From the NCBI GenBank assembly GCA_041662745.1, contig JBAZRV010000007.1:2028-34027 (forward strand): a DNA stretch of 32,000 nucleotides, in the 5' to 3' direction. This DNA is from Patescibacteria group bacterium. GTDB lineage: Bacteria > Patescibacteriota > Patescibacteriia > 2-01-FULL-39-33. Shown piece by piece: positions 20,528 through 30,851 of this stretch (position 1 is the stretch's first letter; each line of letters opens with the position of its first letter). A program made the position numbers and the translations under genes. Below the pieces are notes generated by a model. That model was not told the origin of the DNA. It saw nothing but the letters and a program-made list of their open reading frames with translations, and did not search any database.

Positions 20528-20827
20528 TCAACTTCCACCAGCTAAATAATACAATTTCAATGAGTCCATTTCTTCTAATTCCGTCTCGCTCATACCCTTG
20601 ACCGCTTTAATAAGTTTCCTTGCCCAAGCCAAGGCTTCTTTCTTTGATTTGAAATTGTGGTTTGTCTCAAATAAGATCTCGCCGTGATACTTAATGCATG
20701 CATCAAACTTACCTTCATGACGAGTACGACGACTTGACGCTGATGTGTCTGGCCCCTCAGATTCACAATGAAGATCTTTCTTGGGTTTCGACTTAATAGT
20801 CATTAAAGCAAACATACTTAACATCAT
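20528..20827 (-). CDS. small hypothetical protein, cassette B gene 2 (paralog family, type a)
   Basis: Start moved to ATGATG at 20827 (MMLSMFALMTIK…) with AAGGAG 6 nt upstream; the ORF-track start at 20851 is a TTG. Shares the motif NHNFKSKKEALAWARKLIKAV and its N-terminus with 21703..22050. Confidence 0.75.
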   Translation of the reverse strand: MMLSMFALMTIKSKPKKDLHCESEGPDTSASSRRTRHEGKFDACIKYHGEILFETNHNFKSKKEALAWARKLIKAVKGMSETELEEMDSLKLYYLAGGS

Positions 20828-20853
20828 GGCTTTCTCCTTTTTGGCTGTCAATA

Positions 20854-21183
20854 TTAAGGCAATCTTAGAATAATTACTCTATTCTGTTTATCGGGATCAA
20901 CCTGGATAGCTCTGCCCTTACTAAAAGTATGAGATTTCGGCGGTAATCCTTTTAATAGATCCAATAACCTATTGCCCCACTCAGTTGCTTCTTTAGGAGT
21001 TTCAAATACGGCTTCGGTATGTAAAATGGGATGATCAAAATTATCATTCAGGCATAAACAGGACGAAAATCTAAACTTAACTTCTCCGCCATCATGGCCA
21101 ATGAACCGACCAAATCTTACCGTCAAAGAATCCAATTCTGATTTGCTAATACTAACCCCCAGTTCAGCCTGACTAACTTCCAT
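20854..21183 (-). CDS. small hypothetical protein, cassette B gene 1 (paralog family, type b)
   Basis: 109 aa with GGGAGGG 7 nt upstream. Motif EAVFETPKEATEWGNRLLDLL. Confidence 0.75.
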   Translation of the reverse strand: MEVSQAELGVSISKSELDSLTVRFGRFIGHDGGEVKFRFSSCLCLNDNFDHPILHTEAVFETPKEATEWGNRLLDLLKGLPPKSHTFSKGRAIQVDPDKQNRVIILRLP

Positions 21184-21200
21184 TGCCTTTCCCTCCCATC

Positions 21201-21232
21201 AGTTGATTTTTTCTTTTAAGGTTCAAAGTTAC
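21201..21232 (-). repeat. conserved cassette 5' leader, copy B
   Basis: AGTTGATTTTTTCTTTTAAGGTTCAAAGTTAC aligns with 22066..22097 with 2 substitutions and 1 indel. Confidence 0.8.
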
Positions 21233-21299
21233 GAGTGATTTGCTATTCCCACCAAGAATCGGCACAATATTTCATGCATTCGCGTTTTGAATACAAACA

Positions 21300-21364
21300 A
21301 TAAATATTTAAATTTTATAAAACTTTTTGGAAGAGGCGAAAGCACGAACTGTCGCCTCAAAAAA
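21300..21364 (-). repeat. 65-nt cassette 3' flank, copy 2 (downstream of 21365..21706)
   Basis: Differs from copy 1 at two positions: 21348 is A where copy 1 has G, and 21359 is A where copy 1 has G. Confidence 0.9.
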
Positions 21365-21365
21365 T
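21312..21365 (-). terminator. terminator-like extended hairpin inside flank copy 2
   Basis: Same structure as copy 1, offset by +849 nt. Confidence 0.55.
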
Positions 21366-21706
21366 CAACCTATATTTAATTCGACAAACTCCTTACCGTT
21401 TTCCTTGCTTAATTGGGATAAAATCCAAATTAAATTAGAGCATTTGTCACCCCAATCCGTGGCTTTTTCCCAAGAATCAAAAACTGATTTTGTTTCCAGT
21501 ATGGTAGTGGTCTGAATTGGCAATTTTCTACAACTTTCTTTGCGCTTGTCATCACAAATACCGCCAGGACAAACGCCTTCACATTGATAAATACGAACTC
21601 GATATTTGGCTTGACGCTTGTTTTTTTTAGAACAGCCAATTTGTTTTACCTCATAATGCAATGGCTGATCAGCGGTGAAGCTTATGGTTCCGGAAAATCC
21701 GATCAT
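21365..21706 (-). CDS. small hypothetical protein, cassette A gene 2 (paralog family, type b, with a Cys-rich loop)
   Basis: 113 aa. ATGA overlap with the upstream gene and AAGGAG 7 nt upstream. Motif KSVFDSWEKATDWGDKCSNLI. Loop CEGVCPGGICDDKRKESC. Confidence 0.75.
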   Translation of the reverse strand: MIGFSGTISFTADQPLHYEVKQIGCSKKNKRQAKYRVRIYQCEGVCPGGICDDKRKESCRKLPIQTTTILETKSVFDSWEKATDWGDKCSNLIWILSQLSKENGKEFVELNIG

Positions 21707-22050
21707 GGTTTTTCTCCTTGTTCGGCTTCGGCCAACTTTTCTTCCAAAGCAACAACTTCATTTATAATCTTTTCCATTCTGGCCCATTTCTCCGCAGGAA
21801 TATTCTCTTCAAATAATTCCACTTCCGGTTCCGTTCTAATCGCATTAACAAATCTTTCTGCCCAAGATATAGCCTGTTCTGCCGAATCGAAAATATCATT
21901 AGTGTTGAGAACTGGCCGATGGTATTCACCATAGTTATAAAGATTTATCCAAGCGACAAACTTGCCCCCCTTCTTTGACGGCCCACCAGCATCGCACTTA
22001 ACATCATCACCACGATTCTGAATAACTAGAAAATCAATCATAGACAGCAT
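21703..22050 (-). CDS. small hypothetical protein, cassette A gene 1 (paralog family, type a)
   Basis: 115 aa with AAGGAG 7 nt upstream. Motif NDIFDSAEQAISWAERFVNAI. C-terminal helical acidic tail. Confidence 0.75.
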   Translation of the reverse strand: MLSMIDFLVIQNRGDDVKCDAGGPSKKGGKFVAWINLYNYGEYHRPVLNTNDIFDSAEQAISWAERFVNAIRTEPEVELFEENIPAEKWARMEKIINEVVALEEKLAEAEQGEKP

Positions 22051-26413: not shown

Positions 26414-27304
26414 TCAATCAGCAAACATAAACTCCCGGCCGTCGCTGAATAAGCGAATATCGCCAGCCAAATCGGTACGAAAAATCTTAGCGCCCAACCG
26501 CTTCAAATAATACAGCGTACGGTAATGGGGATGGCCGTATTGATTGTCGGCGCCGACAGAAACTATTGCTAACTCCGGCGCTGCCGCCGACAAAAAACCC
26601 TTGTCATTGGCATTAGTTGAACCATGATGCCCGACTTTAAGCACGTCGGATTTAATCTGAACCATTGATTGCAACAATAGCCCCTCCTCATTTTCAAAAT
26701 CTCCGGTATACAAAGCGGTGGTGGAGCCGTAAACCAATTTAAAAACGATGGAAGTATTATTAAGATTATCCGCATGTTCACCTTGCCAGTTTTTCTCCGG
26801 CGCCAGGAATTTCAATACCAAGCCGTCAATTGTTTCTTCTTGCGGTTGTTCAATTATTTCCACTGGAATATCCTTCTCTTCAACCAGCCTTAAAAATTCC
26901 AAATAATCGGGCGCCGTATGGGTGACTCCGGTCATAATCACCTTGTTTACCTGATATCTCTTAAGGACTTCCACCAAGCCGGCGACGTGGTCAGAGTGCG
27001 GATGGCTCAAAATAACCGTCTCAATGGTCCGATCGGTCGGTGGCAAGTACTGGCCCAACCCGTACAGCACTTTATTATCGGGCCCGCCATCAACCAAGAT
27101 ATCTTCACCACCGGGAGTTATAATTAATGAGGCGTCCCCTTGCCCGACATCAAAAAATATCAATTCTAAAGACGAGGTGGAACGGATGTTAAAGGTTCCT
27201 AAAACGGCGCCGGTATGACGCTGGCAGAAATTAAAGCCGACTCCGGCCAATAATAAAAAAATTATAACGAATCCGATTGAATATTTTATGCCTTTATTGG
27301 TCAT
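26414..27304 (-). CDS. membrane-anchored ComEC-type metallo-beta-lactamase domain protein
   Basis: 296 aa with an N-terminal TM anchor. FFDVGQGDASLI, HPHSDHVAG, KVGHHGS are the ComEC/Rec2 C-terminal MBL signature. Confidence 0.85.
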   Translation of the reverse strand: MTNKGIKYSIGFVIIFLLLAGVGFNFCQRHTGAVLGTFNIRSTSSLELIFFDVGQGDASLIITPGGEDILVDGGPDNKVLYGLGQYLPPTDRTIETVILSHPHSDHVAGLVEVLKRYQVNKVIMTGVTHTAPDYLEFLRLVEEKDIPVEIIEQPQEETIDGLVLKFLAPEKNWQGEHADNLNNTSIVFKLVYGSTTALYTGDFENEEGLLLQSMVQIKSDVLKVGHHGSTNANDKGFLSAAAPELAIVSVGADNQYGHPHYRTLYYLKRLGAKIFRTDLAGDIRLFSDGREFMFAD

Positions 27305-27310
27305 GGATGA

Positions 27311-27319
27311 ATTATAACA
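27311..27319 (-). promoter_or_regulatory. extended -10 (TGtTATAAT) 6 nt upstream of the MBL gene ATG
   Basis: Minus strand: TGTTATAAT-tcatcc-ATG. The predicted +1 coincides with the A of the ATG. Confidence 0.4.
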
Positions 27320-27340
27320 TACCTAATAAAAAAATTTATA

Positions 27341-27370
27341 AAAACTAAAAACCCCGAACTAACGGGGTTT
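27341..27370 (-). terminator. terminator of the CARDB gene
   Basis: AAACCCCG-N6-CGGGGTTT followed by TTTAGTTTTTAT on the minus strand. Confidence 0.65.
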
Positions 27371-27395
27371 GAAGGAATACTAAAAATGATGATTA

Positions 27396-28460
27396 TTACG
27401 GAACAACGGTAATATATTCAGAATAAGTATTGTTGTTTTCATTTACCTCCGCTAATTCGCTCGGCTCATCCGCCTTAGCGGTAAAGGTTTTCTTACCGCT
27501 GGCGATAAATTTGCCATTATAGGTTATCTCAAAAATCTGGCTGGTGCCAAGCGGTCTGGAGGCGGAAGGGTAATCGCCGTGATTTATAGTAGCCACGGTA
27601 AAATCTTGCCCGATAAAAGAAATATTACGCAGACCGGCCGAGGTCGTCAAAGCCGAACCGGTATTCTTAATTTGCAACACGACGTTATAATTGGTATTGA
27701 CTTTAGGCTGCGAAGTGGGGAAAACAATATCGTAAACTATTAAATCTGGCTTAGTCGGAGAAACCGGGGTTAAATTGTAAACCAAACTGTAGAGGATGGA
27801 CAAACCGCGTTCAGCCGCCGTAACCGAAGTCTTACCGCTAGCATAAGTCATGGTAGTCGGAACATCTTTGATAATTGAGCTTTCCTTATAACCATTAGCT
27901 TCAAAGCCGGCAGCGGTGACCTTTCTCTTGGCGCCGGCATCAATCAAATAAATGTCTTTAGAACCAACATACTGGATTAAAGAACCGTCGGGCAACTTGG
28001 AAACGGAAGTAAGAATGCAAGAATTGTCTCTGATATAATCCGTCTCAAAAGAACTTTGAATGATAATGGTACGCGACTGCCAATTATCTCCATACAGAGC
28101 GCGAACCTCGCACAGCACGCCGCCGGGAGTAACAGCAAAAACTTTGTTGCTGTTATCAAACTGCGCCAGATTGCTGCCCGGCCTGACTATGACATTCTTG
28201 CCATTATCAATCTGATCAAATTCATCTTGAGTAACAATTTTAATTTTTTGATCCGACCAACCGCCGCTGTACCAAGTAAAAAAGGTGGCTTGATTGGAGA
28301 ATAAATGACGCTTCAAATCATCATCAATAATATAAACCGCCGGACTGGACGCGGTTTTAATCAAATCGCCGGACATCGGTAAATAAGCGGCTCTCGCCGG
28401 CTTGCCGCTGCCGCCGACAATAATCAGGGCAATAGCTAAAATTAAAAATATTTTTTTCAT
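27396..28460 (-). CDS. secreted protein with a C-terminal CARDB-like domain
   Basis: 354 aa. Signal peptide MKKIFLILAIALIIVGGSGKPARA. Two VYxIDxxxKRxxxxxxxF repeats. C-terminus PDLIVYDI…IKNTGS…ELAEVNENNN is CARDB-like. Confidence 0.75.
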   Translation of the reverse strand: MKKIFLILAIALIIVGGSGKPARAAYLPMSGDLIKTASSPAVYIIDDDLKRHLFSNQATFFTWYSGGWSDQKIKIVTQDEFDQIDNGKNVIVRPGSNLAQFDNSNKVFAVTPGGVLCEVRALYGDNWQSRTIIIQSSFETDYIRDNSCILTSVSKLPDGSLIQYVGSKDIYLIDAGAKRKVTAAGFEANGYKESSIIKDVPTTMTYASGKTSVTAAERGLSILYSLVYNLTPVSPTKPDLIVYDIVFPTSQPKVNTNYNVVLQIKNTGSALTTSAGLRNISFIGQDFTVATINHGDYPSASRPLGTSQIFEITYNGKFIASGKKTFTAKADEPSELAEVNENNNTYSEYITVVP

Positions 28461-28483
28461 ACTGCTGATATTTAACTACTAAT

Positions 28484-28512
28484 AGTATAACATTTGATAT
28501 AAAAAATGCCAA
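28484..28512 (-). promoter_or_regulatory. CARDB gene promoter TTGGCA-N17-TGtTATACT
   Basis: The -35 is embedded in the 3' arm of the upstream terminator. Confidence 0.55.
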
Positions 28513-28531
28513 ACCCGGCGGGTTTGGCATT
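28497..28531 (-). terminator. terminator of the T2SSF-domain gene
   Basis: 12-bp stem AATGCCAAACCC/GGGTTTGGCATT followed by T-rich sequence on the minus strand. Confidence 0.75.
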
Positions 28532-28549
28532 GAATTCAATGTTCAAAGT

Positions 28550-29206
28550 TTACTTGAGATTAAAGCGACCGGATAACTGCGCCAAACGCGCCAATAGGTA
28601 ATCAAGATTGCATTTTGTTTCGCAACTGTCAATGCCATCATCATCGGCAGGCAAATCCAAAAGGTCAGGTGAGAACCCGCTTTCGTTGGCATTAATCAGG
28701 CTGATTTCCATGGCAGAAAATTGTCCGGTTTCCGACATGGCCTCAGCGATACTTCCGCCATCTTTGACAGAATCATGGATCTTTTCTGCCGCCTCCCGCA
28801 GTGGAGCATCCAATCGTTTTGAACTTTCTTTCAATGCTTGCAAAATAGGTACACCGAGAAAAAGCAACCTGCTTAAAATCTGATAAAAAGATTCATACTG
28901 ATCAGCGCGGGAATAAATCGAGCCGTCGACAATGTAATGCATCGCCAAGGGCATGGTTCCGCCGGTTTCTCCGCTTCTGACAGCGCACACTTCCAGATCT
29001 GAAAACATTGAAGACGCGCTTAAGGCCTTCGAAAAAGACAATCCCCCTCTAACATCTTCAATGATTTTCTTAATACCGCGGTCAAAGTCATTAGTAGCGG
29101 ATAATTGACTGTAAATAACGTTCAATGCTTGCATCAGTGTCAAATTCAAGTCCAATAAATTTGCCAGATCAAACCAAAACATCCGATATTGCATGGCTCG
29201 TGTCAT
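28550..29206 (-). CDS. soluble protein made of two T2SSF (PilC/GspF cytoplasmic) domains, no TM segments
   Basis: 218 aa. Domain 1: FWFDLANLLDLNLTLMQAL…VRGGLSFSKAL…VRSGETGG. Domain 2: FYQILSRLLFLGVPILQAL…VKDGGSIAEAM…INANESG. AAGGAGG 6 nt upstream, with its own promoter and terminator. Confidence 0.75.
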   Translation of the reverse strand: MTRAMQYRMFWFDLANLLDLNLTLMQALNVIYSQLSATNDFDRGIKKIIEDVRGGLSFSKALSASSMFSDLEVCAVRSGETGGTMPLAMHYIVDGSIYSRADQYESFYQILSRLLFLGVPILQALKESSKRLDAPLREAAEKIHDSVKDGGSIAEAMSETGQFSAMEISLINANESGFSPDLLDLPADDDGIDSCETKCNLDYLLARLAQLSGRFNLK

Positions 29207-29273
29207 GATTATCCTCCTTTTTGCCCAGCCATAGATTGACGTGGGCGGTTGAAGTTGTAAAGTGCCTGAATTA

Positions 29274-29302
29274 AAACTAAATCATTCCTCTATAATTGTC
29301 AA
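29274..29302 (-). promoter_or_regulatory. promoter candidate TTGACA-N17-TAGTTT for the T2SSF-domain gene
   Basis: -35 at 29302..29297 and -10 at 29279..29274, just downstream of the ComEC stop. Confidence 0.45.
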
Positions 29303-29318
29303 TAAAGCTATAAAAATA

Positions 29319-30851
29319 CTAAAGTTTATTATTCTGTCGCCAAATAAAACAAAATAACAAAAAATAAAAAATAATCAATGCCGGCAGACCAAAGCCAGCC
29401 AACTCAACAGAACTCAAAGGCAAGGAATCAATTAAACGGGAAACTGTTAGCCAATATTGAACCGCTAACCAAGTCAGCCAACCAATCATTTTTCCAAGAG
29501 CGGGGAAAATTGCTCCCGCAATCGCATTAATCAAACTCAAGATCATTAACGGCGGAATGATCGGCAAGATTAGCAAATTAGCCGGCAGAGACAATAGAGA
29601 CAAACGGCCGAAATAGTATAAAATTAACGGCAGAGTGGAAAGCTGAGCGCTGCCGGTAGTCAAAACTATTTCCTTGATTTGCCAAAATTCCGGCCAATCT
29701 TTAAAATACCGCTTAATGATCGGCAATAAGTAACCCAATCCCAAGACTGAAGCGAAAGATAATTGGAAACCAACGTCATCAAGCAAGGTGAAAGGATTGA
29801 ACAACAGCATAATTGCGGCAGTGCAAGCCAAAATGTTTTTTATTCCGGTCAATCGTCCTAAGGCCGTAGCATAAAGCGCCGCTAACGCCATGATCGCCGA
29901 TCGTACGGCCGAAGCCGGGGCGCCGACCAGAATCACATAGCCGGCAATGATAAAGACCGAAGGCCAAAAAGTTTTCTGGCGCCGGACGCCAAAAGCGATA
30001 AGCAAATTCAAAATAATGGCAAAAACAACAACCAAATGCGAACCGGAAACGGCAATTATATGTGTTAAGCCCAAATTAGCGAATATCACGCCGTAAAATT
30101 CCGGTATGCCGCGGCTATCGCCGAGGATGATGCCTCTGATAATTGAGGCTTGCGGTTCGGATAAGGAGCTGTTAATACCCCGAGTTAGCCAGGATTTCAA
30201 ATGGCCGATATGCCCCAAAACCGACAAGCCGCTTGGCGGAGCCAAGGACTTTACTTCAGCCAAAACACAAGCAACAAAAACCCCATCCTTCCGTAGATAC
30301 CTGGCGTAATCAAAGTCATCAATCATCCCCGGACGGATTAAGCGACAACTGACTGCGACCTTTTCGGCCAATTGCCATTCCGGATATAAATCAGTTTTAA
30401 CCGCTACTCTATCGACTACCGGCCGATTTCTTACTTCTAACGCCGGTGAAAAATCCGGGGTCGCCCTAATTAAATAACCCGCCTTAACTGTCAGCTTCTG
30501 ACTGTCAACGGTTTTATCAACGCGAACAATCCGGCCGATGAATTCCACTGTGGATGAAGCATAACCGCTCAATCTTTCCGGTTGATTATATTTGGGCAAA
30601 GCCGAAACGCAACGCCACCAGCCAAAAATTAAAAAAAATAAAAATAATAAAAAAACAAGCAATTGGCCGTTGGCTTCATTTACCGGCTTTTTGTTCCTGA
30701 TTCCAAAACCCAGAACAAAAACCGAAAACAATACGGTCAACCCCAGACAGAAAAGCCAAAAGGCCGAAAAAATAAAAAAATTACCGAAAAATATTCCGGC
30801 AATAAAAGAGAGACAGGAAAAAAATAATAACTGAGCGCGGCTTAGCGGCAT
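29319..30851 (-). CDS. comEC: ComEC/Rec2 membrane channel part (DUF4131 OB-fold plus competence domain, no MBL domain)
   Basis: 510 aa, polytopic. …LGLTHIIAVSGSHLVVV… competence-domain motif. ATG overlaps the prfB stop (TAATG). Confidence 0.85.
   Translation of the reverse strand: MPLSRAQLLFFSCLSFIAGIFFGNFFIFSAFWLFCLGLTVLFSVFVLGFGIRNKKPVNEANGQLLVFLLFLFFLIFGWWRCVSALPKYNQPERLSGYASSTVEFIGRIVRVDKTVDSQKLTVKAGYLIRATPDFSPALEVRNRPVVDRVAVKTDLYPEWQLAEKVAVSCRLIRPGMIDDFDYARYLRKDGVFVACVLAEVKSLAPPSGLSVLGHIGHLKSWLTRGINSSLSEPQASIIRGIILGDSRGIPEFYGVIFANLGLTHIIAVSGSHLVVVFAIILNLLIAFGVRRQKTFWPSVFIIAGYVILVGAPASAVRSAIMALAALYATALGRLTGIKNILACTAAIMLLFNPFTLLDDVGFQLSFASVLGLGYLLPIIKRYFKDWPEFWQIKEIVLTTGSAQLSTLPLILYYFGRLSLLSLPANLLILPIIPPLMILSLINAIAGAIFPALGKMIGWLTWLAVQYWLTVSRLIDSLPLSSVELAGFGLPALIIFYFLLFCFIWRQNNKL

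Follow-up and report, generated by a model that had tools for sequence, protein, structure and literature searches.

The gene described here lies in a stretch of 32,000 nucleotides that was analysed on contig JBAZRV010000007.1 of a Patescibacteria group bacterium (the window). It is found at 28550 to 29206 on the minus strand and codes for a protein of 218 amino acids (aa) that is built from the two cytoplasmic domains of the PilC/GspF platform proteins, Cyto1 and Cyto2, and that by hydropathy has no membrane-spanning segment. With a score above the gathering cut-off and the six-helix-bundle fold in both halves, the protein is a genuine member of the T2SSF domain family, and the soluble family to which it belongs is a new architectural variant within this known domain family. 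As for its function, we tentatively regard it as possible, by analogy with the platform, that it acts as a cytosolic platform mimic, which would bind hexamers of the PilB/PilT type and modulate pilus dynamics.

A T2SSF protein without a membrane part

The preliminary description of the gene, made from the sequence alone, had proposed a protein with both T2SSF cytoplasmic domains, joined by about 12 residues and free of transmembrane (TM) segments, and this outline was borne out by the analyses below. The gene and the parts of its product are as follows.

28550..29206, minus strand: coding sequence of the 218-aa soluble Cyto1-linker-Cyto2 T2SSF protein (open reading frame, Pfam, NCBIfam and AlphaFold2; identical to NCBI MFA6228472.1)
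28928..29200, minus strand: Cyto1 six-helix bundle, residues ~3-93 (AlphaFold2 helices from H3-19 to H85-93; Cyto1 hidden Markov model (HMM) 53.1 bits vs Cyto2 HMM 30.2 bits; match to 2WHN)
28910..28927, minus strand: short conserved linker, residues ~94-99 plus the start of helix 7 (G.IPSRADQY), which stands in place of the canonical TM1-TM2 hairpin
28571..28909, minus strand: Cyto2 six-helix bundle, residues ~100-212 (Cyto2 HMM 48.9 bits vs Cyto1 HMM 37.2 bits; aligned to M. xanthus PilC 285-370; AlphaFold2)
28607..28675, minus strand: lineage-specific acidic insertion, residues ~178-200, predicted to be disordered (alignment gap in all relatives but P0002; pLDDT (the predicted local distance difference test score) ~62)

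In Pfam the protein matched T2SSF (PF00482) with 79.9 bits (E 2e-22; gathering score 25.2 bits) in two stretches that end at profile position ~74-95 of 125, the best of them covering positions 1-74 and thus the helical cytoplasmic part only. The NCBIfam models of GspF, PilC, XpsF and HofC placed residues ~9-94 at platform positions ~70-155 and residues 107-189 at positions ~271-355. The whole-protein scores were 70.4 bits for GspF, 55.2 bits for PilC and 20.5 bits for ComGB, with 47 and 43 bits for XpsF and HofC, which is far under the equivalog cut-offs of 424 (GspF), 700 (PilC) and 240 bits (ComGB) and under the 401-700 bits that are spanned by the GspF/PilC/XpsF/HofC models. When a profile of the family was compared with PDB chains, domain 1 matched the N-terminal cytoplasmic domain of Thermus PilC (2WHN) and residues 83-170 of M. 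xanthus PilC, and domain 2 matched PilC residues 285-370, colinear with the matches of domain 1. The alignment of the 218-aa protein to PilC stops short of the TM helices.

In a Kyte-Doolittle scan with a 19-residue window no segment of the protein reached 1.6, the highest mean being 1.46 at FYQILSRLLFLGVPILQAL, an Arg-containing segment in helix 1 of the second bundle. The same scan applied to profile matches of at least 300 aa gave 2-5 segments above 1.6 in 102 out of 113 proteins. An AlphaFold2 model made from a 29-sequence alignment (pLDDT 93.3, pTM 0.88) contains 12 helices that form two six-helix bundles, and only residues ~178-200 are of low confidence. With Foldseek each of the bundles superposed on PilC 2WHN (TMt 0.77-0.81, root-mean-square deviation 1.5 Å), and further matches for each bundle were OutF (5NBG), TcpE (4HHX) and EpsF (3C1Q and 2VMA). 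Two details of the preliminary description had to be replaced in the light of the model and the family alignment: what was called an acidic tail is an insertion of ~22 residues in the loop between helices 5 and 6 of Cyto2, which the window protein shares with no relative but the closest ortholog, and what had been taken for a terminal amphipathic helix corresponds to helix 6 in the bundle of Cyto2.

The soluble family and its relation to platform proteins

Identical copies of the 218-aa protein were found on three independently assembled contigs, one of 62 kb from ENA and two from Logan assemblies, and the NCBI record carries the title [quoted passage not shown]. A word-indexed search returned only four relatives (43-64% identity, 196-211 aa), and an exhaustive HMMER search with a profile of these relatives returned 18,675 T2SSF matches. 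Among the best 150 of the 18,675 we found ~33 TM-less proteins of 189-233 aa in which one stretch spans the whole profile, and nearly all of the 28 matches with E <= 1e-30 belong to these short proteins. When the word-indexed search was repeated with the family profile, canonical PilC dominated the output and only P0024, P0080 and P0251 were added, and two GTDB metagenome-assembled genomes (MAGs) with the gene were recovered by scanning with a hand-made degenerate DNA pattern. The survey of TM-less T2SSF proteins that had been suggested in the preliminary description has in this way resulted in a family of ~30 clusters of 189-233-aa relatives with the Cyto1-linker-Cyto2 architecture, located in contexts that include comEC and unrelated loci, along with the other TM-less groups treated at the end of this section.

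Throughout the family the start, the linker and the end of the protein are kept. The alignment shows a conserved start M(T/V)RAxQYRxFW, a conserved linker G.(I/L)P(S/T)RADQY..FY at the place where canonical platforms have the TM1-TM2 hairpin, and a conserved end G.LD..L.RLA.LS that corresponds to helix 6 of the second bundle. Using Cyto1 and Cyto2 HMMs built from 129 full-length matches, we typed 14 family members, of which 13 have a Cyto1 as the first domain and a Cyto2 as the second. Because of this order it follows, as far as sequence comparison goes, that the family derives from a two-domain platform, having shed the N-domain, the TM1-TM2 hairpin and TM3. Recent duplication or concerted evolution of the repeats was ruled out by the same typing together with the identity within the protein, since the median repeat-to-repeat identity is 29% and no higher than in canonical proteins. 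The two domains do share one 13-nt stretch, TTCAATGCTTGCA, which is present at 28830-28842 and again at 29121-29133, 291 nt (97 codons) apart, and which codes for (L/M)QAL(K/N) in helix 2 of each Cyto domain. As the overall repeat identity is only 29%, this is probably a matter of chance or codon usage and not of gene conversion.

The family is under purifying selection as judged from substitution rates, with ratios of nonsynonymous to synonymous rates (dN/dS, NG86) of 0.17-0.24 against two orthologs, values which are rough upper bounds because dS is saturated (>1). Among the seven genes of its locus the soluble T2SSF gene shows the largest dN (0.24 vs 0.02-0.14), and this, along with the few relatives in the word-indexed search, is what would be expected if it were a functionless, decaying remnant of pilC or an artefact of assembly or annotation. 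We regard such an explanation as very improbable and largely refuted. The reading frames are intact and of constant length in ~30 clusters, with start, linker and end conserved, dN/dS is well below 1, the model has a pLDDT of 93, and the Shine-Dalgarno (SD) sequence, the -35 hexamer and the terminator are conserved (see below). A frameshifted or fragmentary full-length pilC, the concern raised in the preliminary description, was ruled out by the identical protein in three assemblies together with the constant-length family alignment.

Like the PilC/GspF platforms (PulF, EpsF, OutF, TcpE), the soluble protein has two homologous T2SSF six-helix bundles with Cyto1 before Cyto2, it keeps the core motifs G.P(L/I)L and GE..G.L, and its domains superpose on solved Cyto1 structures. 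Unlike them it lacks the N-domain, it has the conserved ~12-residue linker instead of the TM1-TM2 hairpin, and it lacks TM3 and hence the Tyr-Pro/Glu-Pro channel. The channel residues of the platforms are a conserved Tyr-Pro in TM1 and Glu-Pro in TM3 (PMC10790770), both of which are missing from the soluble protein together with the segments that carry them. Furthermore, canonical platforms are basic proteins of ~400 aa, whereas members of the soluble family are acidic and ~200 aa long, the median isoelectric point (pI) being 5.0 in the family and 9.4 in 130 full-length platform matches, and the soluble T2SSF gene has no adjoining T2SSE ATPase gene. It is clear that the protein lacks every platform-defining feature tested: it has neither TM segments nor channel residues, it scores below the equivalog cut-offs and it is not encoded beside an ATPase gene.

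Redistribution of Cyto domains among polypeptides has precedents, since Tad systems divide the platform between TadB and TadC (CpaG/CpaH) with one Cyto domain in each (PMC10790770), and SpoIIIAB, a weak fold match of our protein (prob 0.98, TMt ~0.5), likewise belongs here. In analogy the soluble protein could be the cytoplasmic ring of a split platform that obtains its membrane helices from a separate polypeptide and replaces canonical PilC, and the retained canonical domain order would agree with this. We find the idea highly doubtful, as no small membrane protein is conserved beside the T2SSF gene, the gene is dispensable in sister lineages, and the acidic surface is unlike that of membrane-proximal Cyto domains. 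TadB, TadC and SpoIIIAB moreover combine one domain with membrane helices, whereas the soluble protein has two domains and no membrane helix.

The family is not the only group of T2SSF proteins devoid of TM segments. One class, comprising P0251, P0134, P0027, P0028, P0045, P0064, P0069 and P0025, has the permuted order Cyto2 then Cyto1, with 2-4 domains in 222-488 aa; P0251 has a basic pI and no SD, and its gene adjoins that of a copper ATPase (locus L010 8001-8669). A second group (P0036, P0077, P0113 and P0095) has Cyto1 before Cyto2 and is more PilC-like (80-95 bits with the Cyto1 HMM), and it lacks the N-terminal and linker motifs of the soluble family. These distinct architectures suggest, at the level of sequence, that the membrane part has been lost several times independently among T2SSF proteins. 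A full-text search of the literature found no description of TM-less T2SSF proteins.

The split comEC locus and the expression signals

The neighbouring genes and the candidate expression signals of the soluble T2SSF gene are listed here.

29319..30851, minus strand: N-terminal half of ComEC, 510 aa (DUF4131 + Competence), the upstream neighbour (TIGR00361 positions 82-375)
27396..28460, minus strand: secreted protein of 354 aa, CARDB domain at the C-terminus; its gene is generally nested in split comEC (domain search, CARDB family survey)
26414..27304, minus strand: C-terminal half of ComEC, 296 aa, a TM-anchored metallo-beta-lactamase (MBL) (TIGR00361 positions 433-663)
29213..29219, minus strand: SD sequence AAGGAGG, 6 nt before the ATG (strongest of 4 SD among 38 genes; SD in 10/10 family loci)
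29274..29302, minus strand: promoter candidate TTGACA-N17-TAGTTT, -35 at 29297..29302 and -10 at 29274..29279 (sequence; -35 in 7/8 orthologous loci)
following the promoter candidate at 29274..29302, minus strand: leader of ~68 nt with a conserved AACCGCC block (alignment of orthologous intergenic regions)
28505..28531, minus strand: intrinsic terminator with a 12-bp stem (6 GC), 3-nt loop and T-run (terminator scan; position kept in L013, L001 and L019)
28484..28512, minus strand: TG-extended promoter-like site TTGGCA-17-TATACT for the CARDB gene that follows downstream, with a -35 that overlaps the terminator 3' arm (same in L013, L001 and L019)

The location between two halves of ComEC, given already in the preliminary description, holds, and by their TIGR00361 matches the flanking genes are true colinear ComEC halves. 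The window is otherwise a housekeeping region with all genes on one strand, encoding SecY, ribosomal proteins, EF-Tu, EF-G, ValRS and RF2, and FtsA, FtsZ and NrdDG are encoded just outside it. In eight distinct loci the gene order is RF2 - ComEC_N - soluble T2SSF gene - CARDB - MBL - response regulator - NDK, with T2SSF orthologs of 37-65% identity; the MAGs include Candidatus Buchananbacteria (Parcubacteria group) and "Patescibacteria group bacterium". The CARDB gene is the generally conserved nested gene of this arrangement, with a family of 34 clusters whose identities are 49-90%.

Four related genomes (L028, L029, L030, L031/32) have RF2 followed by ComEC_N-CARDB-MBL-response regulator-NDK, and ComEC_N ends 0-48 bp before CARDB. 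Six-frame HMM searches of these loci (8-21 kb) revealed no remnant of the T2SSF gene, where absence from the locus does not equal absence from the genome. The non-carrier contig L031/32 shares its samples of origin with the carrier contigs L001 and L023. In a neighbour-joining tree of CARDB proteins (no support values) carriers are found in three branches and non-carriers in four, i.e. the presence of the gene is patchy. Distant members of the family are located elsewhere: the gene of P0080 comes after that of an HD-domain protein and 2.5 kb upstream of a ComM-like (ChlI/Mg_chelatase) gene, and the gene of P0024 adjoins one for phosphoenolpyruvate (PEP) synthase/pyruvate phosphate dikinase (PPDK). 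Since four related genomes keep the cassette without the gene and distant members reside at other loci, the soluble T2SSF gene is accessory and no obligate ComEC component, having either entered the ComEC_N/CARDB junction or been lost there repeatedly. For the same reasons the comEC position is weaker functional evidence than it first appeared.

These observations bear directly on whether the protein could be a component of the DNA-uptake machine, i.e. a cytoplasmic adaptor on the ComEC channel that recruits, for example, a hexameric ATPase or proteins handling single-stranded DNA. The constant order in eight loci, maintained down to 37% identity, and the proximity of the P0080 gene to the ComM-like Mg-chelatase gene would speak for such a role. 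We nevertheless consider it unlikely in view of the four cassettes that do without the gene or any remnant of it, the patchy presence on the CARDB tree, the position of the distant members away from comEC and the T2SSF gene's own -35, SD and terminator.

With respect to these signals, the preliminary description had pointed to one of the few strong SD sites in the window, to a 12-bp-stem terminator and to a promoter TTGACA-N17-TAGTTT. The first two were confirmed. SD sites of at least 5 nt precede only 4 of the 38 window genes, and an SD was present before 10/10 family genes examined, including members of 27-29% identity at unrelated loci. The position of the terminator is kept in three other loci (L013, L001 and L019), although the stem sequence differs in L001 and differs completely in L019, and in these loci as well the 3' arm overlaps the -35 of a promoter-like site with a TG-extended -10 that belongs to the next gene. 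The coordinates of this terminator/promoter module are 28484-28531 (minus strand) in the window, 6660-6707 in L013, 3799-3846 in L001 and 1975-2037 in L019. As for the promoter, the -35 could be upheld but the -10 is weak: TTGACA is perfect, and TAGTTT has 3/6 consensus matches and is absent from the promoter scan list. In an alignment of the eight orthologous intergenic regions TTGACA occurs in 7/8, followed 17 nt on by a TAAnnT-like hexamer and then by the partly conserved leader, and at the equivalent place L013 has TTGACA-17-TAATAT. The leader gave no Rfam match for a regulatory RNA, its best consensus hairpin being merely 6 bp with -2.7 kcal/mol. Because its own -35, strong SD and terminator are conserved, the sequence indicates that the soluble T2SSF gene is a self-contained and probably well-translated unit.

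A single-gene unit of this kind, patchy in its presence, evolving faster than its neighbours and equipped with a strong SD where 34 of 38 window genes have none, could also be a domesticated pilus blocker of phage or mobile-element origin that serves superinfection exclusion; it would work as a platform mimic but be foreign by descent. This is in line with the phage-style inhibitor of the preliminary description, and we now judge it improbable. A pattern scan of IMG/VR viral contigs gave no relative, there was no PHROG or PADLOC match, and no BFVD fold match with E <= 0.001 was obtained. The window has no integrase or other mobile-element genes, the GC content of the gene equals that of its neighbours, and the insertion site is constant across orthologs down to 37% identity, which speaks for long vertical persistence at one locus. 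The gene as a mobile cassette was ruled out, as neither direct nor inverted repeats flank it and its GC content does not deviate.

A few further observations were made at these loci. The arrangement of a channel half (DUF4131+Competence), CARDB and MBL (26414-30851 in the window; L028-L032) is kept in no fewer than 34 Patescibacteria CARDB clusters. Of the three split-comEC products it is the CARDB protein that is conserved most strongly, and its beta-rich N-terminal ~200 residues gave no PDB fold match beyond the CARDB Ig-like domain. At L001 450-3013 (= L014, L021; Buchananbacteria SO_2016_GW1_112) ComEC_N is missing its first ~157 residues and is abutted at the contig end by a 514-aa large serine recombinase (Resolvase+Recombinase+Zn_ribbon_recom), so that a mobile element has possibly integrated into the 5' part of comEC there. 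The locus of the closest ortholog, on a contig of 957,791 bp, has an extra 207-aa gene between the CARDB and MBL genes (L013 7980-8603). At L006 11123-12643 the protein encoded before P0080 has 292 aa, a weak HD_4 match and the sequence HDIEEDT.

All four SD-bearing genes of the window are non-core genes inserted in conserved operons, and the core genes have no SD. The other three SD sites belong to members of a group of four tandem paralogous small genes (107, 109, 113 and 115 aa; 20528-22050, minus strand) located between rpsG and fusA; their products have F(E/D)(T/S)xxEAxxW in common and gave no match in Pfam. The copy number of these genes differs in relatives, with one in L001 and none in L030.

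Proposed function as a platform mimic

In a model of PulF that has experimental support the platform trimer forms a ring of six alternating Cyto1 and Cyto2 domains, and in PulF3:PulE6 as modelled every Cyto domain binds a single ATPase N2 domain, all of them alike (PMC10790770). Since canonical Cyto domains dock on the N2 domains of the hexameric motor, a function as an ATPase binder appears the most likely one for a protein that has been reduced from a PilC/GspF platform to a compact cytosolic Cyto1-Cyto2 unit. Such a protein, expressed as its own unit from the conserved -35, strong SD and terminator and accessory to the comEC cassette, would, possibly in trimeric form, bind hexamers of the PilB/PilT type within the cytoplasm, on the side of the ATPase to which the membrane platform normally docks. 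It would compete with the platform, put a brake on it or hold the motor, and would in this way modulate pilus extension and retraction, and in turn pilus-dependent DNA uptake and host attachment may be affected. Which ATPase is the partner, how the protein oligomerises and in which direction it regulates are points that we infer.

The family alignment agrees with this proposal in several respects. Among canonical columns conserved to at least 60%, 23/40 are kept in Cyto1 and 24/45 in Cyto2, including G.P(L/I)L and (A)GE..G.L. Two family-specific motifs, (T/S)RAxQY..F(W/Y) preceding helix 1 and FSxxE where helix 5 begins, have been gained by both repeats, and from this parallel gain we infer that both domains may be constrained by equivalent sites of a symmetric partner. 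A PilB/PilT-type hexamer, as the ancestral partner, would be the most economical candidate. The two-domain fold, the core motifs, the parallel changes in the repeats, the acidic cytosolic character and the accessory nature of the gene are, by analogy, all compatible with the idea of a regulator or decoy that the preliminary description had put forward.

Other observations weigh against binding to a pilus motor. Missing from the soluble family are the canonical helix-1 Arg/Gln residues, the F-P motif and N35 of Cyto2, and the interface may therefore no longer be the ancestral one. No pilus or T2SSE ATPase genes were found in the window or in 10 kb beyond it, whereas the closest canonical T2SSF gene, P0155, which served as a control, lies directly after two T2SSE genes. 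Being the fastest-evolving gene of the locus would fit an arms race and equally a relaxed constraint.

The protein could also be a neofunctionalised scaffold, in which the Cyto1-Cyto2 fold was kept and the partner changed to some other complex or ligand. Such a change would be in accordance with the loss of ~45% of the conserved canonical columns, basic helix-1 residues among them, with the family-specific motifs that are newly conserved and the acidic pI, and with the fact that the family was never seen beside pil genes, its distant members lying by genes for an HD-domain protein or PEP synthase/PPDK. We rate a changed partner as rather unlikely. The core T2SSF motifs are kept in both domains, the parallel change of the repeats suggests a symmetric partner like the ancestral one, and the conserved neighbours point to no alternative partner.

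If the protein does act as a platform mimic, a bolder version of the idea can be formulated. As a free platform head, three copies would form a six-domain ring similar to that of the PilC trimer and would cap PilB/PilT hexamers in the cytosol, so that a dedicated and strongly translated switch would remove motors from the membrane machine and gate both attachment and DNA uptake. This version seems to us somewhat unlikely. The proposed principle, a soluble binder that blocks engagement of the pilus extension ATPase, would be shared with the phage proteins Aqs1, Tip and Zip and with the host protein CpiA of Acinetobacter baylyi. Aqs1 binds the PilB N2 domain (PMC13436744), the very domain that Cyto domains are modelled to contact (PMC10790770), and CpiA is likewise encoded by an accessory host gene linked to competence. 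None of the four is derived from the platform, and none has a sequence or fold relation to the soluble protein (no PHROG or BFVD match). A 2024 review of PilB cofactors gives no PilC-derived regulator among those it covers (PMC11656802).

Of the core parts of type IV pili, type II secretion systems and competence pili, the platform proteins are understood least, and the interface between the platform and the motor ATPase is known from models only. A natural Cyto1-Cyto2 protein that is soluble, stable and conserved offers a direct experimental handle on this interface. The database labels "type II secretion system F family protein" and "PulF" under which the protein is currently filed would lead to false counts of platforms and secretion systems in genome surveys. 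The soluble family is so far confined to uncultured Patescibacteria, bacteria whose episymbiotic way of life depends on pili and on DNA uptake (PMC9894109, PMC10633639), and because of this dependence an accessory modulator in the comEC locus would be biologically relevant. If the protein indeed binds the motor, it would represent a new mode of pilus regulation by platform mimicry, and if it forms a free platform head, it would be the first regulator of a type IV filament motor that mimics the platform itself.

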